Assembly (NCBI GenBank): GCA_054600435.1
Contig: BAAIJX010000100.1
Coordinates: forward strand, 1 to 43,032
Direction of reading: 5' to 3'
Length of the DNA stretch: 43,032 bases
DNA from: Neophaeotheca triangularis
Lineage: Eukaryota
A program made the translations under genes and the position numbers. Shown piece after piece: positions 12,088 to 43,032 of this stretch; position 1 is the stretch's first letter; each line of letters begins with the position of its first letter. The notes beneath the pieces are model-generated. The model worked only from the letters and a program-made list of their open reading frames with translations. It was not told the origin of the DNA and did no database searches.

Positions 12088-12284
12088 GTTGTTTCAAGAG
12101 TCTTCAGACAGTGTTCCAGAGTTGTTTTTGACGTTGGCAAATGTGTTGCTCGGGCTTGTCCTGCTACCGCGACGCAACCATGTCTCCTCTCGCACCCAGG
12201 CAGTCAATTAGGTTGCAATTGATAACGACAGTCTCTCCTGTAGCAACAAAACAACACGTAACCTCGGAATCTAACGCTGGACGA

Positions 12285-12337
12285 GTGGTGGTGGTGGTGG
12301 TGGTGGTGGTATCTAGTGGTAGTAGTGGTGGTGGTGG
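12285..12337. repeat. (GGT)n trinucleotide microsatellite
   Basis: Directly visible; a short (GCTGGA)n run lies nearby at ~12427-12460. Confidence 0.85.
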
Positions 12338-13891: not shown

Positions 13892-14172
13892 TGTTGCGGT
13901 TTGCTGTAAACACTTTTAGAACAGATAGCTGGGAAGGAGAGAATCTCGCCCGTTTAACCAGACGCCTTCCAAGCCATTCCACTTCTCGACGCGTAGAAAA
14001 GCGCGCTGGACCAACGGAGGAATGCAAACTTCTCCATTACATCTTCCAAGTCCGCAAGGGGAAGCAATCCGGCCAAGCTCGAAAAGAATGTTTCGACGAC
14101 GACAAAAAAGATCATCTTCGCCTGCTTCGAGCCTTGACACGCAGCAGTTAACGACTTTTACGGGAAGCCGCC

Positions 14173-17018: not shown

Positions 17019-17047
17019 ATCATCTTCATCTTCATCTTCATCTTCAC
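17019..17047. repeat. (TCTTCA)n hexamer repeat in the 5' UTR region of the GH43 gene
   Basis: Directly visible. Confidence 0.8.
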
Positions 17048-17075
17048 CTTCGGCCCTCCTTCGAACCGAACAAAC

Positions 17076-19090: not shown

Positions 19091-19390
19091 AAGTCGTCTC
19101 GACGAGATTAAGTCGTTATGGGTAGCGCGAAGTCGTCTCGACAACTAGGAGTCATGACGACTAACTAGAGTCATGTCGACCGGCTAGAGTCGTGTTAACT
19201 ACCGCGAGTCGTCCTAACTACCCGGAGTCGTCTTGACAAATAGAAGTCGTCTCGACTATTAGGAGTTATCTCGACTACTAGGGGTCGTCTAGATAGGGAA
19301 AAGTCGTCTAGACTTTATAGGGCCGTGTTAGTAGCGAATAGTCGTCTCGACAGTAAGAAGTCGTTTTGACAACGAGGGGTTATATTAGCC
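19091..19390. repeat. 19-bp-period array with GTCGTCTCGAC-like core in 3' UTR of B
   Basis: Units start 19131, 19150, 19169, 19188 ... 19340, 19359, 19378; spacers variable. Confidence 0.88.
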
Positions 19391-19880: not shown

Positions 19881-19959
19881 TACTACTTATAACCTAGGGT
19901 TATAGAACGGTATAGGTATGTTTACTTACTAACTAGGGAGTATTCGTAGGTAGTAGACG

Positions 19960-22900
19960 CTTATTAGGGTAGGGCGTCTTGTTTAAGCTATAGGGAGGGA
20001 CGGTCGCCGGCTTAGCGCTACTAGTAGGTACTCTAGATCGAGTGTTATAAGCTAGGCCTACTAGGGTTAGTTCGATAGTAGCTCGTGGCCTAATAGTAGC
20101 TTATAGCGCTATCCTACCTACTATTAGTAAGGACTAGAAGTCTAGCTTAGGAATGTTATTAGGGGGAACTAGTACCTAGAATAGTTAAGTGACGTCTATA
20201 CTAGAGGCATTTCCTATAGAGGGAGGGGGAGCGTCTAGTTGTTTAAAAGCCTAATTGTTCTATACTGTAGTAACCTAAGGGGGTAGGTCGATGACGTTAA
20301 GCTCGTCGTAGCGCATGGCGCCGTCCTTTACTAGCTTAATGTTAGTAGCTATGGCGGCGAGGGTATCGCGCTTAATATTAGTTATTACCTTTAGCTACTC
20401 CCTAGCTTCTTCCTAGAGGCGCTCCGATTCAATGTAAGCGCGCTCGGATACCTTTAGGGCGGTGTAGTATCTCTATGCTATATCGTCGTAGCTATACTAA
20501 GAATCGGCCGTTATCTCGTCGTCGATCGGTAGTAGAGGGTCCTATTAGGCTCCGGACATCATTAGGGCGTTAGAGCTAGTAGCGCTTTACGCGAAAGCGC
20601 CCTTATAGGGAGCTTTTATGGCTACTAGGGCCTAGTGTTTATCTTTAACGAATAGGTCGGCGAGTACCGCTAGGCCGTAGCGCTTCGTAGCTACTACGCT
20701 AGGGGGTAGGGGTAGTCTAGTAGGTAAGCGATACGAAGTCGTAGTCGTTAGGACGGGGGCGGTACTAATTAAGGGTCCTATAGGAGTTAAGTAAGGTAGG
20801 GGGAGGCGGAAAGCGTTACTAGTCCTACCTATAGACACTACTAGAGGGAGAGTAGCGCTTACTAGTAGCATATCGTCCTAGTCTTAGGGGGGAGGCAGGT
20901 TTATAGCATAGCGCTAAATCGGAAATAGGTCGGTGTCATAGAACTCTACTATGTTAGTAAGCTCCCTAATTACCTCTTGGCTAGGGATGCTAGGGACGGG
21001 TCTAGCTAGGGCATTATGGCCTTAGAGCTAAACATCTACGACCTATTAGGGCACTACTTAGTGTAGCTAGTTGAAGCTAGCTTACGTGTCGAGATACGTA
21101 CGCAGATCGTCCTACACGCGGTCTACGTCTACGTACTCCGGCTAGTCGATTTTAGTCTAATTAACCTCTATATCAGGGTCGTATCTAAAGATGGGTTTCC
21201 CTTTCTAGGAGTGATAAGACTTAGATGCGCCCGCTATATTAGGGCGTATCTAAGGGTAAAAAACGAGGTCATTAGTGTCGTAATCAATACGACGGTCGTC
21301 ATCGTGTGCTGTCTCTAGAGTGTCGTAATAGTATTTCCTACTACTAAGGGTATACATACCCTAGACGTAAACGTATTAGTAGCGGTTGTCGCTCTTAACG
21401 TAGATAACTACTAGTAGGCCGCGGGGACAGCGAATAGGTAGGGGTAATACATCCTAGTTAAAATTCGCTGGCTAGTTGTTATATAGGAACCTTTTCGATA
21501 GCACTTTATCTATATAATAGAGTAACATGAGCTTGTAAACGTTATAGTCGCTCAGGATCGCGTTCCTAGGCAGGAGGTTCTCGCGAGAGAAACGGGAGTG
21601 TATCATATAGTACTAGTAGTAGCCCTATATCTTAGCTAGGTTGAGCTCGGAGCCTAGCTCCTAGGAGATTTCGGCGCTTTTAGGGCAGGTTTCGTCGTAT
21701 ATTAGAAACTAGTCTTCGACCTTATCGACTCCGTTATAGTAGCGTATAGTGGTAAAGGGGTTCGGGATTCCGCCGCCTATAGTAGAGTTAACGAAAGGGG
21801 ATAGCGACTACATGTCACGAACTATAAGGCCTATAATATATAGGACAAGTTCGGTATAACTATAGGGCTCGCTCTCGGTCTTCTAGTGGGCTTCTTAGAG
21901 TATAGAGTAACGACCCTTAGAGAGTACCTTAATAAAGTAAGAAAGTGCTGTAGCGAATCTGTCGCCTAGTACTAACGTCTTTAAGACTTCGAAGGAGTAG
22001 AGTTGTCCTAAACGATTAGTTACCTAGCGCTCGTACTTAGTTATCTTGGCGAGCTCTTCTATAGGGGTAGATACTTTAGTACCGAAGCTATAGAAGATTA
22101 AGAAGTAGAGTGGATTAGTAGGCGCGGCGATGACTTAGTTGTCGTCTTCATATATAAAGTAGGCGATTGCCCTAGGCTAGGCGTTCGAGATGTAGTCTAC
22201 TAGCCTAGTACATAGCTTAGCTTGTTTAAGGGCGAGCTTAGCGATAGCCTATTTGTTATAGTACTCTAGGGACTCCTTAGGGTTTTTGCGCTCGACGCCT
22301 TCACGGATAGTGCTCTAGCGCTTAGTGTCGCGAAAAGCGTTGTCGATAGTTAATTGAGCTTTAAGAACGGCGAGGAGTCGGTCTCCTCTCCTATAACGGG
22401 CTACTACCTATATCGCCGACTCTTATAGGAGTAGTACTCTATTAAGAAGGAGTTACTCGGGTACTATGTAGCCGACGAGGTAGGCAAAACCTAGCGTAAC
22501 GACGACCTTAGTACGCTTCGAGTACTTAATCTAGGTAAGAGTACGCTCTAATAGGTTCTTTAGGGCTATAGGAAAAGAAGCGCGAAGTAACGGCTAGTAC
22601 TCTTCGTTTAACTAAGTAAGGCCGGCGAAAAGTGATAGGCCTATATAAGCTAATGTAAGCGACGCGGCTTCTATACCTTAGGGGCTATAGGCAGCTTTAA
22701 GCTAGGGTAGTAGCGTGGAGTCGTTATCGAGTTCTAATAGGCATAGGAAGAGTATACTGCCGAAGAGTGAATTAATTGGCGTAAAGCGGAAGTAAGTAAA
22801 CAAAAGCTTAGCTAAAGTTTAAGGGCGAAGGTCTTTACACTTTAGGTCGAGAAGATTAGTAGCGGCTAAGAGGCTAAGAGTGAAAGTGTCTTGAGTAAAA

Positions 22901-23133
22901 GAGACGCCGAGGTTAGTATAAAGGAGGACTACCGCCGCGTTTTCAATTAACTAGGCCTCGTGGGACTAGAATGGTAGCGATAGAGTAGGAAGGGAGTAGA
23001 TATCTAGAATGTGTAGTCTATTACGCGCGAAGGTGTCACGCTAGTAGGGAGACTACTAGGCTAGCGGTAGGTCTAGTTTTTCAATAGACTAGTAGACCGC
23101 TAAAGGCGCGGCGGGTTAAGATGTGTCGGCCAT
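19960..23133 (-). pseudogene. Extra ORF of element B (RIP-inactivated, unknown function); 3' end approximate
   Basis: ATG at 23133 is in frame with GSELNLAK..YY..HSRFSRENLLP (from 21654); YVYV*GMYTL and ID*PEYVDVD match the A extra ORF. Confidence 0.8.
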
Positions 23134-23454
23134 TATGCTATTCTCTCCCTATAGGAGGCGAGGGCATATAGTTTAGGTTAAGTTAGTCTCTTATATACGA
23201 AGAAAGCGTCTTGGTATGAAGTACGGTAAGAGTATAAGCTCGTTTGGCGTAAGAGCTACTAGTAGTAGGTTAGCGGAGGTGTACTCGATTTTAGAGATGT
23301 TATCGCTAGGTAGTAACAAGTTAGAGTTGTCTAACATATAAGAGTGTGAAGTAGGTAGGCGACTAAGTGTTATTATGGAGCGAAGGTGTTATGTGAAAAG
23401 GGTGTTGTGGCTAGGTATAGTTATAGGGTAAGGGAGAACTTTTCAGAAAGGTAT

Positions 23455-23601
23455 TATTACGGCAGGAGGATCGTAGGCTACGGCAGGAGGCTGCCTACCC
23501 GACAGGCCGCCTGCCCGATACTTAGGGATAGTATCGTACATAGACTCACCTATCATCTTATATCCACTTCACATTCTGACCCATACTGTTAGGTCGTGGC
23601 A
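23455..23601 (+). repeat. 5' LTR of element A
   Basis: Aligns without gaps to 36299-36445; TA(TG)...CA ends; followed by ACTAGTAG (probable RIP-altered TGG PBS). Confidence 0.96.
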
Positions 23602-23644
23602 ACTAGTAGCTAAGAACGTTAAGATTAACTGACCGAACTCCTCT

Positions 23645-23890
23645 AAGTCGACTCTACCCTATAAAGTCGTCTCCGCTAGGCGAGGTCGACTCCACAACAC
23701 TAGGTCGACTCCATAACACTAGGTCGACTCCAAAACACAAGGTCGACTTAGCGGAACGAAGTCGTCTCCACCTTATCAGGTCGTCTCTACCTAGTCAGGT
23801 CGACTCGACCTAAGTCGACACAGTCGACGACCTTAGCTAAGGCCGACGGCAAGACTTAAAGTCGACCCCTACCTACCAAAAGTCAACTCT
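23645..23890 (+). repeat. 19-bp-period GTCG(A/T)CT array in 5' UTR of A
   Basis: GTCG at 23647, 23666, 23685, 23704, 23723, 23742, 23761, 23780, 23799; looser copies follow. Confidence 0.9.
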
Positions 23891-24399
23891 AGGGTAGTGG
23901 GGTTTACGCCCGATCGCCGCGGTGACGCGCGAGTCGACATACCGTATAAAGAGGAGGTTAGACTTTAGAGTGATAGTTAGGTCCTAACCGTCTCTATACG
24001 GGCCTAGACGAGCTTAAAGCTCGCCCGGTAGCCGCGTAACCAATCCGCAGAACGCTTTTAACTACTACTCATAGCCGGCTACAATTAAAGCCTTACTACT
24101 CACCGAATAGAACTACAACCATTTGCCCTCATCTTTCCGTACCTACCGCGGTCGCCCGCGGCTTCCGGTCGTTACCCGAACCCGCGGAAGGAGCGTCATC
24201 GATTGTTGACACACCTAGACCTAATTGCCTTGCCAGGCTGCTTAATCGCCGGAAGTCGATTGAGCTAACACCGTAAACCTAGAACCGCTACTAGACCTCG
24301 CTAACGCCTCTATCGATCGAGCGTACTAGCTAGCTAACTACTACGCTAATCATTAACGCTTAAAAGCAGTAGTGGGAAGGTACCTAAGGCTGAAGGCAA

Positions 24400-27300
24400 T
24401 CGCTAAGACTATCGTCGTAGCATATCCGTCCCCTTCTATCGACTTAGGAGACGCCGGTTACCCCCTATCCTAGAACGTTAATAAAACCGAAGTCACTCCT
24501 AAGGCAAAGGATCTCCTTAAGACATACGAAACAATCAAGCACTATCCTTCGCTTAAACTTGAAGAACTACAGACGGCACTCGCTAGTATCCCCGCCGCGT
24601 CGATAGCCCCTCGACGACCTTTGTCCACTCGACGACCGTCGTCTACCGCGGCTACGAAAGTACCCCTAAAGCCGCGACGAGTCGCCCCGTTAGAGAAAAG
24701 GCAAGTGGCATTACTGCCCCGAGCTACCGAAGCCCCCGTGCCGGTAACCCCGGTCTCCTAAACCCCCGTCTAGAAGGAACCACGAACGGTACTCGCTACG
24801 ATCCCTTCGGCTAGCTTAGCTACAAAAGTACCCCTAGAACCGCAACGAGTCGTCTCGTCGGAAGACAACCAAGCGGCATCCTTGCTACGAGTTGCTGAAA
24901 ACCCCGTACTAGTTACCCCGGTCTCGCAAACTCCCGTCGTCGAAGTCGACTCAATTAGCTCTACGGTTAGCGAAGATCTACTCATAATTAGCCCGCACTT
25001 ACACGGTTTCTAAACTCCGGTCGACTACGGCTAGTACTTGTACAGCTAATCTGCGGTCGAGGACGACTCGCTCCTACATAGTCCCTAAGCAACAGTTAAA
25101 GAGAAGATAGCTAATAACGACCCCGTCCCTCACGAGCCCACTAACTCTACCTTATCCCGTGAGTTAACTACCGACTCTTCTCCCTCGCAGGTCGATACCT
25201 GCCGCTACCTGCCCCATTCCTTTAAGCCTTGCCCGGAAGCGAAAATCGCCTTGCTAAAGGCAAAGGTCTTACCGATCAACTAAGCTCCCCTAATAGTCAT
25301 GTCGGCGAGGGGTAGTTACTCCCGAGAGGAGGCAGGCGACTAGCACTACGACGGTGAGCCCGGTCCTAGTAATTGGGGGCCGAGGGACACTCCGGTAGAA
25401 GATGACAGGCCTGTCGTATCTCTAGGCCTTCTCCGTAACATGCTCCGTGAGGCGGCAGAGGAAGCGAGGATAAGCACCGTAGCCGAGATAGACACTCGCT
25501 TCGCCGCGCTAAGGCGCGAGCTAGGCACGACTAACTCCGACCATTCCCGCTAGGTAGAGGGCCGATAAGACGGCGGAAACATCCGTCGTAGTAATGATGC
25601 CCGTAATAGCGAGCCGCTTAACTACGGGCAATACGCTAGCTTGAATCGTTCCGACAGACTACGACGAGGAGGATTTATGCCCGAGCCGCCCCACTAGCAC
25701 TCGGAAGACTAGCCTTATCGATCGGAAGACCGCCCTTCACGCGGTAACGACGAGTAACGTTAGTAGCGCCCCCGCTCACATAGTAGGCGCCGCGCTCGTA
25801 GCCGCCGTAGAGGTAATCACGACCCTAACGGCTCCGACCCTAGGTCCGACGGCGACCACTAGAACTAACCTAACCGCCGTAACGGCCTAAGCCGCCGAAA
25901 CTCGCGGCCTCGCCGCGATTCACACTAGCCGCGCTCCTTGTTAAGGTCTCGCTCTCGTAATAAAGGCCCTTTCCGCGCTAACGACGTTAGTTTCTTCGAC
26001 CTAAATCTACTAGTCACCGAGACTACCCTAGCCGGAGACGCCGTCACCTACTGCAATAAGACTTATTTTCGTTCTGTCCACTTTTTCGTATAAGCCGCCC
26101 GCGACTACGCTTTCGTCAACTCGGCATCGGAAACTAGACTGCAACTCGGAAAATGTCTTAGAGGGGGGGCATAGTAGTAGTTCATTACCTAGCTGACCGA
26201 CGGAGACAGAGCCTACCTTAGAGGAGGTAGCGGTATTAAGCGATAGGAAGCGGCCCTACGCGATAAGTATAGAGTCTCCGTCACGACGGCGATAAGAAAC
26301 CTTATAAGGGAGGGGTAGACAAAGGAAGATGTTAGGAGCGGGAGAAACCCCTCTGATTTCGTGCTTAGCTACTACAGATAGGCTACCGAAGCTCGAATCG
26401 ACAGCACCCTAGCTCGTCTAGCCTAATGCTAGATGAGAATCACCGGCGAAATGCGAAGGGACATCCTAAAACCGAGCGACTTTACCACATAGGAGTCTTT
26501 TATCCGTGACATAGAAGACGTAGCGGACATATAGAGGGATTTGTACCCCGCCCCCCCCCCCCCTTAATGAACGTAAGTATAACTATTAATATCTAACTAA
26601 TAACAGCACTAGCGGCCGCCGTAATCGAGGCGACAACCGCCGGTCGACTAACACTACCTAGTAACCCTTCGCTCCTCGCGGAAACGCTAACGACCGAGCC
26701 CCTTATTATCTACGTACTAGCTCGAATGCACAGGGCTAAGCCCTAGGCTAGTCAAAAGAGTTCGTTTCTAGGGATGCGCGGGTCGCTTAGGGTGATCGCT
26801 AGCCCTATAATCGCCCTTAGGGCGATCGCTAGCGCACTCCCCGCCTAAGTTAACAATAGCGACAGGGCAATTAGAATCGGTAGGACTAGACTAGGCCCTT
26901 AAACAATCACCTAGAGGACGTAGAAGAGACCGACCACGAAGGAGAGAATGGTTAAGCCGACGACGAAGCAGACGGGGAGCCTAAACTCTTAGACGAAGAA
27001 CCCTAGGCAAACTTTAACGACTTGATTGCGTACGAGGACGACTTCGACGACTACGCGGACGCTACTGACCCGATCGAATGCTACGTAAACGAGGCGTTCG
27101 CACCTAGCCTTATTACGGGAGCTAGAACTCCGGCCCCACGACTAGTGCAAACAAGTGTAGAGCGACTAGCTAAAGTCAAGTGCCTACGGTATAGGAACTC
27201 CTTTAGCTCTAAGAACGCACTCTATAGGCACTTGCGCGTAGAGCATAACGAGAGCGCGTAGCTAGCGGCAGCCCGAGCATTAAGCTCGGCCTAACTCGCC

Positions 27301-30300
27301 GGCGCCTAACTAGACCTAGCCCCGGCCGAGGAGCCGACCGAGGAGCTACTAGTGGTCAAATCATCGGCTCTCGATACATCCTATAACGGCTATGCTTTCC
27401 GCAATTTTCATTTCCTACGCCTCCTAGTGAGGTTAGCAAAGGCCGGCGCCGACTATGCCGTCTACCTCGACACTAGCGTAATAGTTTCCATGATCGACTC
27501 GGATTCCCTAGCATTGCAATTACCAAATATTACGCGACATCGTTCGAAAGTTCCTTTCTAAGTACGCGGTGTCGGCAACAAAATGGCGACCTGTACTCAA
27601 TTCGTCTACCTCCTGTTCTAGATTGTCGCCTAGGCGACTACCGGCCGCGTTTTATACGAAATGAAACACGAATTTCACATAGTTAGCGGGTTGAAGCCGC
27701 TAATGCTGATATCAATAGATGTCATCACGCCGTTAGCGATGAAAATCGACATTCCTAAGAAACTAGTGCATATCGGAGCATGCGCTAACGTAAAAGCACC
27801 GTTACTTGTTAAGCCACGGGACAAAGTCCGCCTCGGTACCTCACTAAAGCTCTCGTAGACGACCGTGATACTACCTAGGTCTTTGGCTAACCTGCTAGTC
27901 GCGTGCCTAGCACTCCCCGTAGGCCGCGACTTTTAGTTCTTACCTTCCCCTAACCTACCGGCGGGTCTCATAGGTTATAACCATGTAGTCGACGCAAAAT
28001 TTTCCCTCGTCATAGTCCGTAATGACACCGACGAAGCGATCTCCCTGCTAAGGGGTATAACTCTCGGTCGCCTCACCGAATAGTAGGAAGAAGACAGCTA
28101 CTACATCGACCTAGAAGATCATTGCCTCGTAGGGCTACCGCAGAAAACCATCTTCGACGGTTTACCGATGACCGACGAGCAGGTTACACTCGACAACGGC
28201 ATCACGGCCTACGGCAGCACATCCCAAATCAAAACGCTATAGAGCCTCCTCGCAGAATTCTAAACCCTGTTCGTGGATAAAGGACAGACCGTCGACATCC
28301 CCCCCGAGCGCTACATGACTATACCCCTCAAGGAAGGATAGGAGACGGCTAAACTTTCGACAAAAGCGTATCCGCTTTACGCAACTGATCGCGAGGTAGC
28401 CGACGAGACACTCGACAAGCTCCGTGCCTAAGACAAGATTGACTTTTCTCGCAAACACACGGCTTTCGGCGCCCTAGTCTTCGTGGTGTAGAGGACTATA
28501 TTCAAGGACGGCTAGCCGGTAAGAAAGGGTAGAGCGGTTGTCGACATCCGGAACCTTAACTAGGTTACCGTTAAAGACAGTTACCCGCTCCCACTACAGG
28601 AGGATTTGCTACAAGCTACCCGAGGCGCTTTAATTATCTCCGTCATAGACGCAGTCGCTTTTTTCTATTAATGGTTAGTAGCGGAGCACGACCGCTACAA
28701 GTTAGCGGTAAATACTCATCGAGGGCAAGAAATTTTCAAGGTAGCGATCATGGGTTTCAAAAACTCCGTCGCCTATATCTAAAGGGAACTAGACAACATA
28801 CTTCGGGAACTGCGGCCTTTCTGCCGCGCATATATTGACGACATAGTCGTTTTTTCTCGTGACCTAGATAAGTACCTAGACTACCTTCGACAGGTGTTCT
28901 TAGTCCTGTCTAGCTATAGCGTTAGCCTTAGCCTATCGAAGACCTTCCTCGGTTTCCCTTTAATAGCACTACTTAGGTAGCAAGTCAGCGGGCTTAGCCT
29001 AGCTACCTATAAAGATAAAGTCAAGTCTATACTCGACCTCAAATTTCCCCGTACCTTGAAAGACCTAGAGAAGTATCTCGGCCTCACGGGATAGCTAAGA
29101 CAAGTCGTGCTATACTACGCCTAAATCACTAAGCCACTACAGACCCTTAAGACCTAGTTGCTAAAAGGTGGCCTAGTTAAAGGCAACGCCCGCAAAAGAT
29201 ACTCTACCACGACCCTTGTCAAAACCGATTCCGACGAGGTACGTAGTAGAGCGTATAGCGCTTTCTAAACGTTACAGAATATCTTTAGAGACACTTAATT
29301 TCTCTATCACCTCGACCTAGCGAGGAAGCTCTATGTCGACGTAGACGTATTAAAGGAGTTCGGTTTTAGAGCCGTCATCTACATGGTCTAAGGAGACCCC
29401 GAGCCAGTAATGACCGGCAACAAGGCAATGCATTTTCCTCGTAAGGATATCTAGCCGATCGCCTTTCTAAGTAAAGGTTTAACAACCGCCGAAAGCCATT
29501 ACTAGCCGACCGAACTCGAGATAGCCGGCCTAGTGTGGGTACTACGTAAGGCACGACATATGTTTCAATCCTTAACCTAGCTAGCAGTCGTTTTCACCGA
29601 CCACGCCGCTATGACCGCAATCGTAACCTAGTATAGCCTAATAACCACTTCCTGTACGGATAAGCTTAATCTTCGCCTAGTACGCGCAAGCTAGTACATC
29701 TCGTAGTTCAATCTCGACGTCAGATACCGACCAGGAAGAATTCATCTAGTCCCTAACGCTCTTAGCCGCTTGCTCGGAGACCTAGAGACACCGGCGGCGA
29801 TGCCCGACCACGACGGACTCGACCTACTAAGCTACAAAGAAGGCTATTAGGGAGCATAGGAGCCGCTCGTTTTTCACGCCACTCTAGTAGAGATGAGCGA
29901 TAGCATGAAGGATGAAATCCGGTAGGGCTATTAAGACGACTAGTTTTAGGCCCCGCGATTATAACAGCTCGTCGACTAGGAGACAAGAAGAGAGCGCGAG
30001 CACGCTAGTGACCGCGCTAGGGAAGCAAGTCAGCCGGATAAATCGGCGACGACTCCCCTATAGAACGACGTCAAGCGCGTAGTAGACAATAACCTGACCG
30101 GGGAAGCGGAATCGAGCCCACTAGGACTCCGTTTCTTCCTCCGTGACGGCCTGATCTACTATAGGGACGAGGAAGACGGCCGCGAGCGGCTATGTGTACC
30201 CAAACCTCTCTTCCGCGAGATCTTCGTAATGGCGTACGACTAGCATCATCACGCTAGATTCTTCCGATCTTACACTAGGATCTAAGCCAGTTTTTATGTC

Positions 30301-31536
30301 CGTAAGCTAGCTCATGAATTGCGGCAGTACATATCGTACTACCTAGATTGCAACCTGTATTAGACACTCCGACACCCGCCGTATGGCGAGCTGCAACCGA
30401 TTGCCATAAGGGCAATCCCCTATCACACCTAAACAGCCGACTAGGTACATGCTTTGCCGCCGATACCGGGAGGCTTCGACTCCCTCCTTACGGTCACCGA
30501 CAGATATACTAAAAAGATACTCCTGATCAAAGGTAGGGCCGACTAGAGCGTACCGGAATGGGCAGTAGCTTGGCTAGAGGCTCTACGCTTTGCCGAGTGG
30601 AATATACCGACCATACTAATTAGCGATCGCGACCCGCTTTAGCTATCGGCATTTTAGAAGTCCGTTTTCTAGAAGCTTAGAACCCGCTTCCTAGCGTCGA
30701 CCGCATACTACCCCTAGACGGACGGGCAATCGGAGAGGACTAATCAAATAGTCGAAATCGCCATGAGGTACTTCATAAACTCTAATCCCGAGACACTATA
30801 GGACGCCGCGCTCTCGCATATTCAATCCTCCCTTAACAATGCACGTAACGCCTCGACTAACGAAATCCCTAATGTCATGATATAGGGCTTCAAGTCAAAT
30901 CTCGACGCCCTTAACCCCTTACTAGAACTTCCGGCGGCTAACTACATAGTACTCCGCTAAGTGGCGAGGGATTAGGCCTCGGACGCGCTAGCGATGGCCG
31001 CGGCAGCAATAAAGGATAGATACGACCGTACCTACAAACCTATCCGCTTTCGTGTAGGCGAAAAAGTCCTGCTAAAGCTATAGAAAGGATACTCCATACT
31101 AGGCTTTATACCCAAGAAGCTCGCGGCGTAGCGGATAGGGCCTTTCACGGTGCTCGAAGTGGTCGGCCGGCTTGTATACAAAATCGACATCCTAGAGCAT
31201 TGGCGAATTCACCCCGTCATATCCGTAGCATAACTAGAACTAGCTCCCTAGGCGCCCGACCCTTATAACAGGACACTAACGGAGATAGGGCCAGTGTGCG
31301 TCGACGACGACGGTTTTAGCGTGTACGAAATCGAACGCCTTATGGCAAGAAGACTCCGCAAGTAAAGTGGGAAAGATGTTAAGTAGTACCTCGTCAAGTA
31401 GAAGTCGTGGGGACCTACACACAACGTCTAGTATAACGCCGTAGACCTGTCTGACGCGTAGGAAATGGTAGCCGAATACGATAGAACCTACCCGGGAGAA
31501 GAAGGCAATGTCGGCATGAGAGGGCGGAGGAAGTAG
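24400..31536 (+). pseudogene. gag-pol of element A (RIP stops); start approximate
   Basis: PR YLDTS ~27463-27477; RT YIDD 28831-28842; RNase H LYVDVD..EFGF ~29329; IN HHCC ~30230-30352, ISDRD ~30619, P*TDGQSERTN ~30712; GPF 31138; chromodomain VYEIERL..YLVK*KSWGP 31321-31490. Confidence 0.93.
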
Positions 31537-32108
31537 CCACTAATGGCTCCCCGTACCGACGACGAGCGGCTCTAGTACCGGCAACACCCTATAGTCGTTA
31601 TCCCGCCGCCCTAAACCGAGAGGTCTACACCGGCTCCCCTACCTACGGTTAGCCCTTACGTAGAGGCCACTCTACCCCCGCTAGAAAGGCGCCTACCTAA
31701 GCCTCGACCTTTAAGGCAGAAGACGGGCGTAGAAGTACGCCGGCAGGCATAGCGCACTACTACGCGTGCCTTTTAGGGTGCTTAAGGCGCCTAACGGCGC
31801 TCTCTTATCCTTATCTAAGAGGCTAGTCGCCCTAACGACTAGACCGAAGTATTCGCATCTCGGCTTAGCAATACCTCATGCTTACCGCTTTAGGCAACAA
31901 CAATAACAATAACAATTTTTCGAAACTTCTAGAATACCGACCTAAGCCCGCGCGTACCTTCGACAACAACTTAGGCGCAACACAAACACAACACCACGAC
32001 CTTTCGCCCTAACCTTCTTCACTACCAATACCCTTAAACCCGTACCTCCTTACCCATAACTAACTACTACCTATCCGTCGTCGACATCAGTTAACGACGG
32101 CGCCCGCC

Positions 32109-35100
32109 ATAATTGCGACCTTACCCTCCTTGCCGGCGCTAGGAGAGCGCGATAACGGTGACTAACCGACCGCTATAGGTTTACCTAACTCCACTTATAG
32201 TGACTAAGAACTAGACCCTACCGGACAAGAGGACGCTAAAAAGGCACCACTACCTCGCGACACGTCCCCTACGCTATAGTGGTAGTCACCGGGACAAATC
32301 ACGGTCTTCGCGTATAGAAACCTACTTCTTCTAGACGCCGACTATCTTCCGGAGCCGGTATACCCTCTCTTACCGGAGGACAGTTAGCTTACGACCTACG
32401 CCGCTACGGTGCTGTTACACGCTAATCTCCCGCGCGAATTCAAGCAAAAGAATTTCGAGACTGTACTCCGCACGGTAGTAGGCGCCTTTAACGCCGACGG
32501 TACCTTCGACGACAATATAACACCTCGTGCTTTGTCCGAGTACCTCTATAACTACTTCCGCTTCACCTACATAAAGAAGCTTACCGGAGGCGTACTCTTC
32601 CTCCGACTCCTATACCTTAGAGCGGACGGTATCTACTACGCCCACGAGACCCTAGACGCCTACTTCGCCCCTAATACTCTCCGACGTAGTGCGGCCGTCG
32701 CCGAGATCGGACTAGACAGCTTCTAAGGAATACTAGCGCTCCGTGGTAAATACTCTACGTAGGCGGGTATCATTAACACCTTTAAGGTCGCCACATTCCC
32801 GGACAACCGTACTCTTACTAAAGCGGAGTACGAAAAGAGAAGGAAAGTCTAGGTGGTCCTAACCTTTATAACCAAGAGGGGTTACGAAGACCGCTAGGCG
32901 CTTGTCACTTAGGGCGCCCTCGCCCCTAACGAGACACTCGAGTAGGCCGCCGCCCGATATAGGGAAGGCGACTAAACCTTGGCCGCGCACGAGATCGCTA
33001 TCTCTGCTAACGACGACTACAAGGAAGACCCCGCGTAGATTAAGCTAAGACGACTCTACTACCTTGACTACCCCGGAACCCCGACAGATTTAACCGAAAC
33101 CGTCGTCGTCTAACTACTCGTAATCAAGAGAGCCGACCTCCCTCTCCGTCTATATTACTACCGTCGCCACCTTTAGCCGGCCGCTATTCGTCACCTATTA
33201 GCCGAGGACTTTAACTAAGTAGTCAGCACCCTAGCCGACCCCGGCTTCTCGTCTATCTTTAGCGCCTTGCTAGGTAAAGGTGCATACCCCGACGAGGAAC
33301 TGGCTCGCATTATAGAGTGCGAACTTTAGGCCACAAACAGGCTCGGTCGTCTTCACTAACTAGCTATCTTGCGAACTCTGTCGGACGAGGCCCGTTTCGA
33401 CATCGCGGTATCAGCTTTTATCTAGCTCCTTTCCTAAGAGAGAATTCGTAACGTCGAGGAAGCCGGCTATAGACACGAGCTCGTCCTTAGAGCTACGGGC
33501 CTAGCGGTACGAGACGTATAACGACCTAGCGCATATATCGACGAAGTCATAGGAGGCGCCGCTCTAAACCCGTTCCTTGTCCTACGCGACGGCGTTTTGA
33601 CAGACTTCTACTTCCTTTACGGAGCTACCCGCCCGGCTAGTCGTAAAGTCAAACGCAAGTATGGTTGCGAGCTTAACCTCGCAAACACACAAGGCAGCTA
33701 CTATTATTCCGCTATCTATTCCCGATAGGGACGCGATAACCTCCCGCCACTACACGCGATTTTAGAAGACTACGACGTGTACTCGCTCATGAAGATATGT
33801 TATAAAGACGAGTTCTTTAAAAAGGACTTCCTCTATACTAACTAGCCCGAGACCTTTAGCTACGAGGGCCTCCCACTACCTATCCGTAGGTAGCGCGGTA
33901 GACCCGCAATCGTTTAGGTAGAGTCTAAGAAGTAGTAGCGCTACGTCTACGTGCTAGGAGTGTACACACTATACGGAGGGGGCTATGTTTTCCACCATCT
34001 TAAGAACATAGCACTAAAGGACGCCGACCGGCGTATCGACATCGACTCCGCGAACTAGGGGAGCTACCTATAGCAACGCCCGGACTAGCCGCCGAAGTCT
34101 AAAACCATCTCCTACCGGTACTAGCTATATAAGAAGCCACTACCACCCTACTTTAGGTAGGAGCCGGACCTAAAGGTAAGGTTCGACCTTATCGATTGGC
34201 CGGAGTACGTCGACGTGGACAGGACCTCGCTAGCGTTACGCGCCTAGCTTAACGAACAGGTAGCGCTACCACGCGACGAGAGGATATGCTACGAGGCGGT
34301 AATTAAGCTTTAGAATAAAGGCAAGAACGAGGACGTCTAGGCAATCGAGCGCTACGAGGGAGAGGAAAAGATAGCGGAACACGTAGATGCCGAAGACTAC
34401 GACGACCTTAACGTACAGCTAATGGACAAGTTCGCCAAGTACGCTCTAGAACCGCCGCTACCCGAGGGCTTCACTACACTAGCCGGCGTGCCTCTTTCCT
34501 CCGGTCGTACTAGCGCCCGTTTTAGGGTGCCTAAAGGCTATAACAACGAAGCCCTAGTAAGCGACGATAGCGACAGCGAACCCCCTAAGAAGAGAAAGCG
34601 TAGCAACTCTTCCGACGAAGCCTCTACCGAAGATGACAAGCCTCCTAGCAAGAAGGCTATAGTAGCTAACCGAAAGGCCGCGAAGGAGCTAAAGGGCACT
34701 AGAGGCGCTTTTAAGACGTAGGAATACTAAATGAGCGGCGCCGCCTCTACGCGCACTCCGCTACGTAAAGTGGACAGGGAGCTTATAGATGACTCCTAGG
34801 ACGGCTATAAGAAGGCCGCTAAGATCTACTATAAGGTAATAGAGGCGTTAACGACGGCGTATAAGGCCGTCATTAAAGCCACGGAAGAACGTGACAACTA
34901 GCTTCGTACTATGCGCGACGTCAAGCGCAAATTCGAGAAAGCCGTGAGGGCAAACATCGCCGATACTAGAAAGGCCGGCAATAGCCACGGGTAGCTACAG
35001 CCTATTAGGAAGCCGAAGATAGACTCCGTATAGGCGGAATGGGCTTACGTCTAGCCGCATGCCCCAATCGACGGCGCCGAGCCCGAGAACGGCGTTACCC

Positions 35101-35474
35101 TAGACGACCTGCTAGCGGTACCGTAAGGTGTTCCTACCGTTAAGGACACCTCGCCCGCGGTAGAGGCAAGCCTTAGGAGGTTAACAAGGGCAGCCCACGC
35201 CCCCGAGCCGATCGTCCTAGTAACGGACGATAAGGCTACACCTAAGCCGAAGACCACTAGGCTAAAGAAGACAACCGGCAAGACAAAGGCAACGAAGTCC
35301 GTACTAAGGGCAAGGAGAGCCGACTCCGCGAGCGACGACGACACACTATAGGAGCGGCCATTAAAGGAAGCTAAGCACATCCCCTCCGTCGCGACCCTAA
35401 AGTAGCGTAAGGCTCGTCCCGACAGTTCCGTCCCCTATACTACGAAGCGTAAGACTAAGCACCTCCGGCTATAG
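32109..35474 (+). pseudogene. Extra ORF of element A downstream of pol (~1,120 codons, RIP-inactivated, unknown function); ends approximate
   Basis: One reading frame (includes track ORFs 32409..32726 and 34422..34721) interrupted by RIP-type TAA/TAG; CGCCCGCC-ATA likely a RIP-mutated start; homologues in B and C. Confidence 0.85.
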
Positions 35475-35984
35475 AGTCTTGCGCTCTTTCCGGCAGCTAA
35501 GGGCGACGGCCTTAGTCATGCTACCCGGCATGGGGTTTTTTGTTTTTTCCTACCCTTACTACCGACAACGTCGTTTACCCTTACTAACGATAACCGCTCG
35601 GGCACTAGCTACCCGATGACAATACGTAGTCTAACCACTACCGTAACTAATCGCCCTCTACTATCTACTTTCTTTTTGACATCGGAATCTCCGATTTTTG
35701 CCTATACCGACGAGGGCGTCGTACTAATTGTTTTGCCTCTATAGCGTAGCCGCTAACCCTTACGGCTACCGGTTACGTAACAAGCGAAAGTCGACTATCG
35801 ACTCGAAGAAAGGCCGCCACTATGCCACGACGCCTCACTAGCGAACCGAGCTAGTACGAGCTATTAGTGCAGTATATAGTCTAACTATCCCTTCTACACT
35901 AGCATCTTCCCTACCTAACGGCCGCTCATTTCCCACTCGACTACTGTTACCCTAACCACGACAATGACTAAAGTGCACGCGAAC

Positions 35985-36250
35985 TGACTCGACCGGACAA
36001 AGCTAACTCGACCTTAAGTCGACCTAGACTCGACCTCGACCGCCAAAGTCGACCTCGTAAAGTCGACTCGACATTAACCGCCGGAGTCGACCTCGTAAAG
36101 TCGACTCGACCTTAACCGCGCGCCGAAGTCTACCTCGTAAAGTCGACTCGACATTAACCGCCGGAGTCGACCTCGTAAAGTCGACTCGACCTTAACCGCC
36201 GGAGTCGACCTAAAGCACTTAACACGACCTGAACAGGTCGACTCGACCTA
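35985..36250 (+). repeat. 38-bp (2x19) GTCGAC tandem array in 3' UTR of A
   Basis: Unit AGTCGACCTCGTAAAGTCGACTCGACATTAACCGCCGG at about 36047, 36085, 36127 (after a 4-bp insertion), 36165, 36203. Confidence 0.9.
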
Positions 36251-36298
36251 ACGACCTCACGAGGGCGTGAGTATCTTTCGAGAGGGGGGGGGGGCAGT

Positions 36299-36445
36299 TG
36301 TTACGGTAGGAGGATCGTGGGCTGCGGTAGGAGGCTACCTGCCCGACAGGCCGCCTGCCCGATACTTAGGGATAGTATCGTACATAGACTTACCTATCAT
36401 CTTACATCCACTTCACATTCTAACCTATACTGTCAGGTCGTAGCA
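36299..36445 (+). repeat. 3' LTR of element A
   Basis: TG...CA, preceded by G-rich PPT, followed by TSD GGTAT. Confidence 0.96.
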
Positions 36446-38257
36446 GGTATAGAGTCGCATTATCATTATTATTACTAAAAGCGGAAAGCAAGAAGTCATG
36501 CTAAGAAGTGAAAGGTACTACGTTATACGTCGCCGTAACGACCGTAGGCATTATCGATAGCGCTAATAAGAATGGTAACGCCGCTAAGATGCCTTAGGCA
36601 CCCCTAAAGGCATAAGTAGCCGCCCTCCTAGCTTACTAGCGGACTTCCGCTCTAGAGCGCTAGAAATTAGGGCATGGGCGGGGGGGGTTAGCTTACTAAG
36701 GGAGCTCTTCTAGCTCTCCTTCGGAGACGGAGGGTAGTGGGTAGCGTGACGGGGGTAGGATAACTACCGTTAGGTACTATAGTAATAGCTAAGGTAGCTA
36801 GGGGGAATCGAGTCGAGGTAGGGGTAGCTAATAGCGTCTACCCCTTAGCCTAAGGTTTCTATCTATACTAGGATAGGTACGGTCATATTCTACTATTAAC
36901 TCCTATGTATCGGCTAAGTCGTCGGCGTTATACTAGAGATTGTGTACTAGGCCCTAGTCTTTCTACTTTACTAGATACTGTTTCATCGGCTTGCCCTACT
37001 ATATATACACTCTCCTAGCCAGTAAACGCTCGATTTCATACACTGAAATCCCGTTATCGTCTATAGAGACGGGGCCTAACTCGGCGGGCTTATAGCTATA
37101 AGGATCCGGGGCCTAGGGAGCTAGTTCTAACTAAGTAATAGAAACTACTAGGTAGATTTTCTAGTGTAGCGGAAGATCGAGCTTATAGGCTAGTCAGCCT
37201 ACTACTTATAGTATCTTGAAAGGGCCCGTTCTCTATGTAGCTAACTTCTTTAGGATGAAACCGGGGATAGTGTAACCGCGCTAGAGCTTAAGCAAAACCT
37301 TTTAGCCGGGTTTAAAGCAGATAGGCTTATGGGCGCGGTTATACCTGTCTTTTATTGTAGCAGCTACTATTACTAGTACATCTAATGCTTAGTCCCTTAC
37401 GACTTGTCTAAGCGCTACGTAATCTATGGCTAGGAGCTCGATAAGCATGTCAAGTACGTCTAGATTTATCTAGAAGCCTTAGATAACCACGTTTAGAATC
37501 TCGTTTATAGAGACGTTCCGGGCATTGTTAAGTGTCGACTAGATATAGGGTAGAGCTACATCCTAAGGCATGTCCGGGTTCGAGTTAATAAAGAAACGTA
37601 TAGCGATCTCTATAGTTTAGTTAGTTCGCTTAGACTAACCGTCGGTTTATAGATAGTAGGTAGTAGAAGCGAGGAACCTCGTACGAAGCCACCTAAAAAC
37701 TTCCTTCTAGAATGTAGAGAGCTATAGGGGATCTCTATCGCTAATAAGAATGGTAGGAATATTCTAATCGGCCGTCTAGAGTACTTCTAACTAAGCTACT
37801 ACCTACTCTAGGGCTAACTAATCTACGCGCCCTTTAATTAAGAGGATCTTTTTAGAGAAGCGGTCGGTAATAGTAAGTAAGGAGTCGAAGCCCGTCAGGG
37901 TAGGAGGTAGGGCATATACCTAGTCGGCGGTTTAAGTATGATATGGGATCGGGCGAACCTCTATAGGTTAGAGTTCGCCTAGTGGTCTATGTCGTCGTGT
38001 CTAATATAATACATAGTCTAGGTAGTAGGAGATATAGCGTCGTAGCTCCTAGGGCAAGTAGTAGATGTAAAAACTAGCCTACATGCATGTATATGCCCTA
38101 AAGAAACTAGTATGGTGGTAATTATCGTGTGCTATCGCGAAGACCTCCTTAAAGATTAAGCGGGGAATGTATAGGCGTTCCTAGCCGTCGGTATCATCTC
38201 TATAGTAGATAAGGTCGTCGCGTAAGAAGAACCGGAGGCCTAAAGGGGATGATTCCG

Positions 38258-38461: not shown

Positions 38462-38705
38462 GGAACCGAGTCGGTTAGCTTAAACCGAGTCGGTCGGTCT
38501 AAACCGAGGGGGCTTGCCGAAACCGAGTGGGTTTGTCGAAACCGAGTTAGTTACGTTAAACCGAGTGGGTTTGCTTAAACCGAGTCGGTTAGTGGGCACC
38601 TAGATGGAATGAAACCGCGCGTGGGGTCTAAACCGTGTCTGTAGGTTCAAACCGAGCTAGTAGGTTCAAACCGCGCTAGTAGGTTCAAACCGCGCTAGTA
38701 GGTCC
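38462..38705. repeat. 19-bp-period array with AACCGAGTCGGTT-like core in 3' UTR of C
   Basis: AACCG at 38464, 38483, 38502, 38521, 38540, 38559, 38578 and 38631, 38650, 38669, 38688. Confidence 0.9.
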
Positions 38706-39079: not shown

Positions 39080-42000
39080 ATCGCGGTTACACGGCTAGGC
39101 CGAAGTCTATAGCTACCTTGCTGATTTTTTAGGTTAGTGTTGTCTCACTATATCCCGCGCTAGTACGCCGTAGTTTATATGGTCTTCGGACCGCGGTACC
39201 CTCGAGGGATAGGGAGCTAATTAGGCTCCGAAGTACGGTAACTAGCGGCGTGCGCGCCTAGCCGACCTAGTCTCTATAGGCGGGGAGGCCTTCTAACGGC
39301 GCACGGAAGGCGTATAGGTCAAGGCGGGAGGGACGTCGTCGTCTCCCGTAAGGTTAACGATCTCTACTTTCCTTACGCTAGACGGGGGTACTTTCCCGGG
39401 GAAATAGAGGAGAACGGGGAGGGTGTCGGCGGCGTCGCGGACGGTCTAGGAGATGCCGGAGGTATCGACCATGATAGCGTCGAGCGTTTAGGCTTCTAGC
39501 CATTGTTTCCAACTCCTTATCGTTTCCTGCTCGCCCTCCTACGGGCTAGGATCTTCGTAGATAGTGATGTCTCCTAAAATCATCCCTTTATCCCATGTAT
39601 CTTACATCGCTTGCATTCTTGCTCTCTACACTTTAGCCGCCATGATAGCTATAGACTCGGAAGCTACCTTGACTAAGTCGTATTCCTTATGGGCTACCGC
39701 TATTAAGTTTATAGCCCTAGTGCGGACACCGTAGTCTACGCTATTCATGTCCGACTTTACACTGTCGTAGTTAGTTTCCGCGTCCTAGAAGGTGCTAAGG
39801 GCGTTAATTCGCGCCTCGTAGAAAGCATAGGCCTTCTAGTTATACTCTCCTTAGAACTAGCTAGTACGGTACTAGTCAATCTAGCGCGTAGGGGAGGTTG
39901 GTTAGGAGCGGCTCTATACGCCGGAGACGCGGCGAAAAGGGTTGTCGCGGAGGGAGGGACTAGTAGTACCTAGCGCGCGATTAAACGGGTCATTTATGGC
40001 GTTTGTGTTAAGCGATAGGAAACGCTGCCCGCCGCGCGAGCCCTATACTAGTTGTCTGCCGCTAGAGGTAGGCTGCTACTAAGTCTACTAGTTGCCTAGG
40101 GTACGAGGGTATTAGGCAGCCGTAGGAGCTTTTAGGTATTCGTCCTTGCGCCCGGAGAGGCCGCCGGAGATCCGCGGGAGTTAGGCGTCTAGGACATGGC
40201 TACTATCGGCCGGGGTTCGCGCGTGGCCCGAATAGTGTATCGGGTAATGACTACGGCGGTCTAGGGTGGCCGCCCTATCGCTAGTCACGCGGTAGAGGTA
40301 GGGGGGGATCTAGAAACCGGCTTCCGATAACGTGGCCTAGTCGTTACTCGCTAATGTCGGCAGGGTAGCAGTTAGCGGCATAGTAAGGTACCGGCTAGGC
40401 ATAGGCGGCGGTAACGCCGCTATCCTTAACATAGGCAGCTCGTTATCGGCATAGTTCTCCGCGGTGTCGTCTAGTAGGATGTTCTTTTGTCCCTAGACCG
40501 GGGGCGGGGTACGAGGCGCGGCGTCCCTTCCTACTAGCTAATTGTTAACGGTAACGTCGGCCATTAGGCGGTCGGGGTGTCCACGGGGCAGTACTACCTA
40601 GCCGTCTATGAAATCGCGGTATGCTAGTGAGATTCTGTCGACGTCGACGACCGTTAGCTAACGTATTACTGTCTAGTCCACTTCTAGGTACTCTTCTACT
40701 TAGAACTTGTTTGCGCGGGCTTGCCTCTACGCGTAGTAGGTAGCTAGCTTAGTAGCGAGCGTAGGACGTTACTAGGGAAAACCGCGGGGTGGGTTTAAGA
40801 CTGTCGTCATTAGGTCTTTCTCGGGGTCTCCGAGTACGGTCAAATAGTTGTATAGGTGTCCGCTACCGTAAAGTGTGTAGTATCCGTAGATGTAGGCGTA
40901 CTGCTACTTCCTACTTGTGTTCGACTAGAAGATACCGGGACGCCCCCTAGGGCGGCGGTTTAGTACCGGCTCGCCGCGAGCTATAAAGGTCTCTAGCTAG
41001 TTACGATGCAAGATTTTGCCGGTGAGGAGGGAGCGTTCGGCCATAAGTATAAGCTCTAGGACATCACAGTCTTCTAGCGCGGCGTGGGTCGGTAGCAAGT
41101 TGTCGATGTCGAAACGCGAGTGGAAAGCGCAGTAGTAGTAGGAGCCGGTGGTTTCGCCTAGGTTAAGTTCATGACCGGGGTCACGTGCCACGCCGATGCT
41201 CTTAGGGCGCTCCGGGAGGGTATATATTTAGTAGAAGTCATAGGGAACCTTAGGGTTACCGCGCTACACAAAGTACGGGTTTAGTTGTACGCCTCCTATG
41301 TTAGCGAGGCAGTAAGTGATAAGGGGTTAGGGGCAAATCGTATAGAGCATAGCTAAACCGACTGCGCGGAGGACTAGTTCAAAAGTGCCGTCTTGCTCGA
41401 GGGTTTAGACGGCGGAGTGTTCTCCTATAGTTAGGAGTTAGATAGCGGCTGCGACTATGTTATTAAAGACGCCTTCCGGGGCAAGGCTAGTAAGGGTTGT
41501 CTAGGGGTACAGCACTCCTAATGAGGTAGTTACAAGCTTATAGGCGTTATCGATAAGTGCGAGGTCTTGTGCCTCGTTACCGCTACGTTAAGTAACTAGT
41601 CGAAAGATGGAAGTGAATAGTGGATCGGCCTAATAGTAAACGACAACGCAATTAGTAAGCGCCTTTAAGGGTCGGAGCGAAGCCGGCTAGTAAGAGGCGT
41701 ACTGTTATAGACGGAAAGGGAGATCTACTTCGTGTAGGGCGAGTAGCTAAAGTGTTCGCAGATTAAGAGCGAGGTCTAACAATAAAGGTACTGCCGCCTT
41801 GAGGTCATAGAAGGTGTTATAGTATTCGGGCGTGTTCGGAAGGGTTATATCTACGCTTAGTCTTTCGAAAGCGGCCTAGAGCTAATTGTTACCCTCGCGG
41901 TAGCGGCGTGCGGCTTCCTCTACTGTTTCGTTTAGATCGAGCGCGCCCTACTAAATGAGTTCCTAGCGTGTGTTGTAACCAGGAAGGTTTGTGAAGGGTG

Positions 42001-42200
42001 AATCCTAGGTTGTAGCCTAACGACGGATGCGTAGGGCTTTCTCCGCCGGAGTTTAGGTTGTGTCTACCACCGTGCCGGTGGTAGACGCTAGGTTTAGATA
42101 CCCGCGGCGTGAAGTTAGCGCGGCGGAGGTGTGTAGGTAATGGTATGGCTGTTTGGCGCCGGTATAGGTATGTGGTAGGAGCGCTCTATAAGGCAATGAT
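39080..42200 (-). pseudogene. Extra ORF of element C (RIP-inactivated); both ends approximate
   Basis: R*ELI**GALDLNETVEEAARRYREGN (~41890-41968) and track ORF 40997..41191 (ELNLGETTGSYYYCAFHSRFDIDNLLP) are in frame and align to A. Confidence 0.8.
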
Positions 42201-42914: not shown

Positions 42915-43032
42915 AGGGTTAGGGTTAGGGTTAGGGTTAGGGTTAGGGTTAGGGTTAGGGTTAGGGTTAGGGTTAGGGTTAGGGTTAGGGTTAGGGTTAG
43001 GGTTAGGGTTAGGGTTAGGGTTAGGGTTAGGG
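42915..43032 (+). repeat. Telomeric (TTAGGG)n tract, chromosome end
   Basis: AGGG followed by 19 perfect TTAGGG units to the end of the window, G-rich strand 5'->3' toward the end. Confidence 0.99.

Follow-up and report, generated by a model that had tools for sequence, protein, structure and literature searches.

ORF3, a probable third gene in a Dothideomycete lineage of Ty3/gypsy chromodomain retrotransposons

Fungal long terminal repeat (LTR) retrotransposons are usually regarded as carriers of gag and pol, and repeat-induced point mutation (RIP) hides their other coding content. Here we describe a large third open reading frame (ORF3) present in three divergent Ty3/gypsy chromodomain retrotransposons, elements A, B and C, which lie in a 43,032-nt contig of Neophaeotheca triangularis (BAAIJX010000100.1, assembly GCA_054600435.1; this whole stretch of DNA is called the window below). 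ORF3 occupies the place where an envelope (env) gene would stand. We consider it likely that it is a genuine third gene of one Dothideomycete lineage of such elements: it lies inside the LTRs, was copied with the element, was kept as a protein while the elements diverged and has since been destroyed by RIP in this genome. An earlier note on this DNA had set the frame against fungal chromoviruses that encode only gag-pol. The latter statement needs qualifying, since additional ORFs were noted in fungal chromoviruses in 2010 and are drawn in the maps of that paper (Novikova, Smyshlyaev & Blinov, PMC2864245). Like A, the 'add. ORF' elements of the relevant passages are fungal, carry a chromodomain, reach more than 13 kb in size and have an extra ORF of unknown function. 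They can be likened to ORF3 by description alone, as these passages name no elements, ORF position or sequence, and, unlike the present analysis, the same passages give no family, homologues, structure or selection test for the 'add. ORF'. Full-text literature searches returned no paper on the ORF3 family, PMC2864245 being their sole mention of an extra ORF in fungi.

Extra ORFs have also been described outside the fungi. In plants, the Ty3/gypsy elements of the Ogre/Tat group carry extra ORFs and Athila carries an env-like ORF (PMC6431247, PMC2864245). In the parts of these papers that treat them, they are, like ORF3, lineage-specific, of unknown function and borne by large LTR elements, in which some lie between pol and the 3' LTR; they belong to another kingdom and to other clades, Pfam detects no relationship, and the Athila ORF is membrane-protein-like whereas ORF3 is not. 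Some LTR retrotransposons of bdelloid rotifers, in the sections of PMC5408684 concerned with them, resemble A in having a third ORF besides gag and pol; ORF3 itself matches no known domain. The nearest working model may be CERV of the Caenorhabditis elegans Ty3/gypsy element Cer1, presented in the corresponding passages of PMC10309623 as a novel nuclear protein required for the export of unspliced genomic RNA. CERV would resemble ORF3 as a non-Env protein encoded by the element beside gag-pol, the resemblance being one of role only, and it is made from a spliced mRNA (PMC10309623), unlike the route that we favour for ORF3 (see below).

ORF3 in elements A, B and C

The three copies of ORF3, and the pol regions that precede them, are located as follows.

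32109..35474, + strand: ORF3 of A, a RIP-broken frame of 1,122 codons with 46 stops, running from an N-terminal helical region through a core (aa 480-713, nt 33546-34247), then an acidic/basic patch and a helical stretch, to a tail of basic character
34581-34601, + strand: PPKKRKR of A, within the acidic/basic patch
20281..23151, - strand: ORF3 of B, with a candidate ATG (MADTS) at ~23133 and 65 TAA/TAG stops counted over 19900-23151
39389..42025, - strand: ORF3 of C, a form with a short N-terminus and 52 TAA/TAG stops
30106-31482, + strand: integrase-chromodomain of A
38258-36867, - strand: integrase-chromodomain of B
42911-42414, - strand: chromodomain and pol tail of C

When the A frame of 32109-35474, with its stops read as X, was compared with the window by tblastn, it matched B at 23031-20281 (-) in a single unbroken frame (32% identity over 952 aa, E 1e-71) and C at 41995-40379 (-; 33% identity over 564 aa, E 8e-47). 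These matches are frame-specific: the best E obtained with the other five frames of the same region was 4e-8, from the antisense of the same conserved stretch, followed by 0.004, and in 20 shuffles, 16 of which gave some match outside the region, the best E was 0.10. All three ORF3 copies share their strand with an integrase-chromodomain and lie 3' of it, and the integrase-chromodomains of B and C are respectively 62% and 41% identical to that of A. The same large ORF is thus found at the env position of three divergent elements, as the earlier note had claimed, and the sequence blocks that it quoted are all present (ARYREGD/ARYRRGD/RRYREGN; ELNLA..YYY..SR; YVYV.G.YTL; PEYVDVD), as is the PPKKRKR motif near 34581. 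The length of ~1,000-1,120 codons that it gave for every copy is right for A and too long for C, which can be followed over at most 879 codons (42025-39389). C begins at A residue ~253 and hence lacks the first ~250 residues of A, in keeping with the much shorter N-terminus ascribed to it; its helical C-terminal part extends to ~39389. The candidate start codon of A at 32109 reads ATA, which could be an ATG changed by RIP.

The order of the genes is also alike. In C, the chromodomain is followed by ~420 nt and then by ORF3, the 5' side of the element being cut by telomere repeats. In B, pol ends at ~36,600 and the element continues at 23449 and below, with its ORF3 below 23,450, which implies that A inserted in the spacer between pol and ORF3 of B; without the A insertion, B shows the gene order of A. 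The ends of these two elements are irregular. The chromodomain region of C begins at 42911, adjoining the telomere, and C appears to have been broken off and capped by the repeats; B is 5'-truncated at ~38,260, where the 3' region of C abuts.

ORF3 in the window is since destroyed by RIP. The stops in the three ORF3 frames (163/163) are without exception TAA or TAG, with TGA absent, a bias that follows from CpA-to-TpA changes on either strand, which turn CAA, CAG and TGG into stops. Within the conserved core, the stops coincide with a W (NWPETF, WQRP, I.WP) or a Q (RRQ) of intact relatives; beyond the core, where the alignment is poor, residue counts at stop columns carried no information. Among the three + frames of 32109-35474 the ORF3 frame holds 46 stops vs 65 and 80 in the others. 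RIP indices, for which the usual thresholds are 0.89 and 1.03, are those of RIP-mutated repeats throughout the elements (TpA/ApT 2.0-2.7, precisely 2.04-2.71; (CpA+TpG)/(ApC+GpT) 0.32-0.49), in agreement with the view that RIP stops had hidden the frame.

Element A is complete, with the following parts.

23455..36445, + strand: the whole of element A (12,991 bp), a Ty3/gypsy chromodomain retrotransposon with ORF3 between pol and the 3' LTR
23455..23601, + strand: 5' LTR, 147 bp, TA...CA (TA being a RIP-type change of TG)
36299..36445, + strand: 3' LTR, 147 bp, TG...CA, 91% identical to the 5' LTR
23450-23454 and 36446-36450: target-site duplication GGTAT, directly outside both LTRs
36280-36294: polypurine tract GAGAGGGGGGGGGGG, just before the 3' LTR
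27181..31773, + strand: pol, with reverse transcriptase (RT), RNase H, integrase, SH3-like domain, chromodomain and a conserved tail ending at ~31773
27463, 28831, 30244 and 31321-31482: pol motifs, respectively the protease-like LDTSV, YIDDIVVFS of the RT, the HHCC region and the chromodomain

A repeat scan found a 148-nt direct repeat (23454-23601 / 36298-36445, 91%) as the sole long repeat pair around ORF3. The LTRs, the polypurine tract and GGTAT on both sides mean that 23455-36445 inserted as one unit with ORF3 inside, and ORF3 was mobilised as part of element A. This element has the hallmarks of a chromovirus, namely TG...CA LTRs with a target-site duplication, the RT-RNase H-integrase order together with a polypurine tract, and an integrase whose C-terminus bears a chromodomain. 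On 27001-32109, Pfam recognised RVT_1 (E 2.9e-12), RT_RNaseH and RT_RNaseH_2, Integrase_H2C2, SH3_Tf2-1 and a weak Chromo, in that order. The Chromo match scores 25.1 bits in C, a value equal to the cut-off (E 1.7e-5), and 19 bits in A (E 0.0013), which is below the cut-off with stops read as X; Pfam gave no Chromo match in B, though this region is 62% identical to A.

Selection, relatives and architecture of the ORF3 protein

Because RIP makes only transitions, transversions were counted instead to characterise the divergence of the three copies. In a protein-guided alignment, A-B transversions per site amount to 0.289, 0.274 and 0.409 at codon positions 1, 2 and 3, and the Fisher odds for position 3 are 1.76 for A-B (p 1.5e-12), 1.64 for A-C (p 2e-8) and 1.35 for B-C (p 7e-4). 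Such an alignment is biased in this direction by construction, and the ~700-nt core was therefore re-aligned as nucleotides with the frame ignored. The frame-blind alignment kept the codon phase in all 678 of 678 A-B columns and gave 0.354 A-B transversions per site at position 3 vs 0.168 and 0.221 at positions 1 and 2, with Fisher odds of 2.27 (A-B, p 9e-6), 1.71 (A-C, p 3.5e-3) and 1.97 (B-C, p 1e-4). In both alignments transversions thus concentrate at third codon positions, as expected, and this comparison of the three sequences indicates that ORF3 evolved under protein-level selection, which the earlier note had already proposed. A and B are 32% identical in ORF3 vs 62% in integrase; ORF3 is the faster to diverge, yet it does so in a coding-type manner.

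A profile of A, B and C was then compared with 1.84 billion representative proteins and matched 19 of them at E <=0.001, 10 at 1e-10 and 3 at 1e-30, the best at 1e-53. One match (P0003) is a fragment of the window itself (34422-34718, 100% identity), which leaves 18 independent clusters: 7 with full-length, stop-free proteins of 935-1,688 aa, 4 of 274-526 aa and 7 short fragments. Intact homologues include KAF2721752.1 (P. citri), KAK3617380.1 (E. elasticus, with three sister accessions), OQO22999.1 (Rachicladosporium) and multi-copy proteins from the Joint Genome Institute (JGI); the Peltaster relative is QIX02112.1, and further multi-copy proteins come from Logan contigs. Organism names were attached to four of the ten clusters looked up (Polychaeton citri, Elasticomyces elasticus, Rachicladosporium sp. 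and Peltaster fructicola); all four are Dothideomycetes, from three orders of Dothideomycetidae plus one incertae sedis, and all four proteins are annotated as 'hypothetical protein' or 'uncharacterized'. The matches thus lead to unnamed hypothetical proteins only, and to no known host family or described transposon ORF of the kind that the earlier note had named as evidence against itself. Multiple copies are seen for a 1,688-aa sequence, present on 26 contigs, and for a cluster of 18 near-identical members of several lengths, as a repeated element would show. A, B and C align with the family across the whole core, and in a core-domain tree they form one clade (98/97 support) that adjoins a metagenome protein. 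The columns conserved in the family are P-P, the D of LEDADV, the R and G-P of RRQ.GRP, Y, Y.L.GG and the W of WQRP.

Other searches added little. A word-index search with residues 60-800 of ORF A against near-length proteins gave no match, and the core profile against proteins of 400-2,000 aa gave three, all already-known members, which means that this index is insensitive for the ORF3 family. A metagenome scan with P0014 and P0010 produced 169 pattern matches, of which 0 were confirmed, and viral contigs scanned with P0020 gave no match. That the N-terminus of P0014 contains the pol tail motif was considered and rejected (BLASTP best E 1.2).

The protein is predicted to consist of four parts: a variable helical N-terminus, a conserved alpha/beta core of ~225 aa, a linker that is long and disordered, and lastly a hairpin of antiparallel helices that bears a basic tail. 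The core consensus reads MGGAKP...LPP..LEDADV...NWP..F..GLPLP.RRQ.GRPAI.W...G.YTL.GGGH...WQRP...VD.DR. In an AlphaFold2 model of a 935-residue homologue (P0004), built from a 20-row alignment, the predicted local distance difference test score (pLDDT) is 80-97 over the core (280-505) except for blocks of 78 and 70, and the N-terminal helical region is partly confident; the core is followed by ~130 disordered residues, a two-helix antiparallel hairpin (639-728) and a disordered tail, and 462 of the 935 residues score below 50. Modelled alone, the core has a pLDDT of 79.9 and a predicted template modelling score (pTM) of 0.82.

Neither the sequence nor the model of the core led to a known family. 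Pfam gave for ORF A one sub-threshold chance match (OVT1, E 0.17), nothing at E 0.01 for all 19 proteins of the profile search and, at E 5, three unrelated matches among nine full-length members, in one member each. A sequence profile search of the PDB with the core returned 0 matches at E 10, and the ESM Atlas no usable match with the intact homologue P0002 as query. With Foldseek, the core model reached a best E of 3.8 against the PDB and of 0.76 against the viral models of BFVD, and VIA-align retained 0 of 37 chains of the Foldseek list. The fold search is thus unusually empty, which may point either to a new fold or to a technical blank.

Alternative explanations

The most serious alternative to a genuine third gene is a passenger, i.e. 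a host gene captured once by the ancestor of these elements and carried since without a role in their life cycle. The relatives are indeed annotated as ordinary stand-alone hypothetical proteins, the Peltaster relative (417 aa) lies on a 2.77-Mb contig, and ORF capture is known for LTR retrotransposons of other phyla, as stated in the part of PMC5408684 that deals with it. We nonetheless consider a passenger improbable: ORF3 kept the same place while the integrases diverged to 41-62% identity, its substitutions are of coding type, some members are multi-copy, and the family has few and scattered members, 18 clusters in 1.84 billion representatives, instead of one orthologue in each Dothideomycete genome. 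The shared place and the intact relatives in at least three Dothideomycete orders likewise bear out the earlier view that ORF3 is not recent cargo. ORF3 may have originated by an ancient capture; it is the useless passenger alone that is disfavoured.

ORF3 might also be the C-terminal part of the Pol polyprotein, produced by frameshift or read-through, which we judge quite improbable. Relative to pol, ORF3 is in the -1 (+2) frame in A and in the -1 frame in B, and the A insertion plus one duplication amounts to 12,996 nt, a multiple of 3; these points would suit a Pol extension, whereas the frame in C is +1. In the spacer of A, between the conserved pol tail (~31773) and the first conserved residues of ORF3 (~32300), there are stops in all frames. 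Intact homologues begin with a Met just before a conserved N-terminal motif: a Met 2-6 residues before F...QR(K) starts three full-length homologues and is kept internally in two long forms, the motif being located at ~32307 in A and ~23031 in B. Finally, none of 64 close pol relatives, which measure up to 2,485 aa, holds the core domain. We rather favour, with some reserve, the view that a separate 3'-coterminal transcript carries ORF3 as a cistron of its own, which is then not translated as part of Pol. In an ascomycete, splicing out an intron the size of gag-pol would be uncommon. The sequencing runs found to contain the locus comprise one listed DNA run, probably the source of the sequence, and no RNA run.

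It is very improbable that ORF3 is a separate mobile element, or an unrelated gene fragment, nested by chance in each chromovirus. The region is a nest of insertions, with A inside B, and would offer the opportunity; the position and orientation of the ORF are, however, alike in three elements, repeat scans turned up no termini or duplications of its own, a single GGTAT duplication flanks the whole of A, and the grouping of A, B and C in the ORF tree (98/97) matches co-descent with the elements.

An envelope-like protein giving infectivity, as in errantiviruses or Athila, is scarcely credible: its position between pol and the 3' LTR is all that recalls Env, the basic tails and disordered linker do not resemble Env, there is no Pfam match, and none of nine proteins (7 full-length homologues, P0020 and window A) has a hydrophobic N-terminus or a 19-residue window that reaches the Kyte-Doolittle membrane-span threshold of 1.6 (maximum means 0.79-1.59), which means that ORF3 is not Env and agrees with the lack of signal peptide and transmembrane segment reported before. 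Likeness to fusion glycoproteins is not seen in Pfam families or in PDB or BFVD matches of the core model, a missing fold match excluding no family.

Several points weigh against ORF3 as a genuine third gene with a role of its own. The retrotransposon setting is one seen only for A, B and C. On a metagenome contig found with P0020 as query (L001), whose 3,404 nt do not extend as far as a pol, the 516 nt upstream of ORF3 contain no chromodomain, and the copy has two in-frame stops. The absence of the core from the 64 pol relatives, with no fused pol-ORF3 form, counts here too, and the 417-aa Peltaster protein may belong to the host or be a relic. The transversion test hinges on alignments with 46-56% nucleotide identity. 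The -1 frame in A and B, which are dead copies, would also suit frameshift expression, C being +1. Finally, every statement on function is an inference, as the protein has no family and no fold match and its nuclear localisation signal (NLS) is a motif only. With these points in mind, a third gene of the lineage remains the reading that we prefer.

Setting of the nest, tandem arrays and possible role of ORF3

The window divides into two parts. The left 18 kb have a GC content of 0.49-0.61 and no RIP signature (for the genes at 1-17500, TpA/ApT is 0.85 and (CpA+TpG)/(ApC+GpT) 1.13), and ~18,100-42,914 is a nest of Ty3/gypsy elements, all RIP-mutated; the switch from un-RIPed to RIPed DNA, at ~18,100, is abrupt. 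The last unmutated gene before the nest, at ~17437-18102 (+), resembles, we presume, a glycoside hydrolase family 43 enzyme. The last 118 bases of the window (42915-43032) are 19.7 perfect copies of AGGGTT, i.e. a (TTAGGG)n telomere, and as these repeats reach the window end the transposon nest is subtelomeric.

Two further features of A were noticed. Just upstream of the protease, at 27181-27250 (+), the pol frame reads C-x2-Y-x3-F-x5-L-x2-H-x4-H, which we take to fit the spacing of a classical C2H2 zinc finger if the Y is a C changed by RIP; Pfam gave no match there at E 0.01. Retroelements usually carry a CCHC knuckle upstream of the protease. Between the 5' LTR and the recognisable gag, ~2.4 kb gave no Pfam match, and at 24636-24938 (+) in this interval a 135-nt unit is repeated at 168-nt spacing with 73% identity.

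Short tandem arrays accompany the three elements.

36027..36234, + strand: tandem array in the 3' untranslated region (UTR) of A, with a 38-nt unit (2 x 19) and GAGTCGAC/GTCGACTC cores
23683-23813: related 19-nt array in the leader of A
19139-19232: related 19-nt array in the 3' region of B
38464-38703: related 19-nt array in the 3' region of C

The array core CGACTC lies on the element's own sense strand in the A leader and in the B and C 3' arrays, and the 3' UTR array of A alternates both orientations. GAGTCG occurs 50 times in the window vs 28.7 expected, a number reached in 0 of 100 shuffles. These arrays of 19-nt period could be a candidate cis-acting site. A different tandem repeat, with a 28-nt unit in 2.3 copies, lies on contig L001 at 2747-2810, ~140 nt downstream of its ORF3 stop.

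Our best guess, from basic NLS-like tails and the coiled-coil hairpin only, is that ORF3 may be a nuclear accessory factor. K/R clusters of KKRK type occur within the last 60 residues in 6 of the 9 proteins of the hydropathy set, and those of window A are at residues 243 and 827-828 of 1,122; on these clusters alone, we would put the chances that ORF3 acts in the nucleus at about even. More tentatively, it might be an element-specific helper acting on its own RNA, DNA or chromatin, for example by expressing or exporting genomic RNA or by protecting the element from silencing, any single mechanism within this class being unlikely. The anti-silencing, transactivation and RNA-binding roles suggested earlier are guesses, the core having neither a family nor a fold match. 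Two known systems come to mind. VANC, of the Arabidopsis VANDAL transposons, is a fast-evolving anti-silencing accessory protein that goes with family-specific short tandem motifs in the non-coding DNA of the element, and a factor of this type would bind such motifs and remove silencing marks. The 19-nt arrays of A, B and C may recall this pattern; VANDAL is a plant DNA transposon, unlike the fungal LTR elements here. Export factors of Rev/CERV type are nuclear and bind the unspliced RNA of their element, which requires them to be exported; all that ORF3 appears to offer here are NLS-like K/R clusters and a predicted helical hairpin. It is tempting to speculate, and this remains a long shot, that ORF3 is an element-specific regulator of new fold that would oligomerise through its hairpin, enter the nucleus and recognise the 19-nt CGACTC arrays as DNA or RNA, and would thereby shield the family from heterochromatin or RNA silencing or drive the export or packaging of genomic RNA, as an independent fungal counterpart of VANC or of Rev/CERV.

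A large third gene thus appears to be an old, conserved and selected part of one chromovirus lineage in the Dothideomycetes, the class to which many plant pathogens and extremotolerant rock fungi belong. As its core matches no known family or structure, it may represent a family, and perhaps a fold, not described before, and the intact copies of ORF3 that exist are open to direct study. The members of the ORF3 family that fungal gene sets list as 'hypothetical proteins' probably belong to transposons, and transposable element annotation pipelines should model them as such. The function of ORF3 would inform how retroelements cope with fungal genome defence or with nuclear RNA handling.

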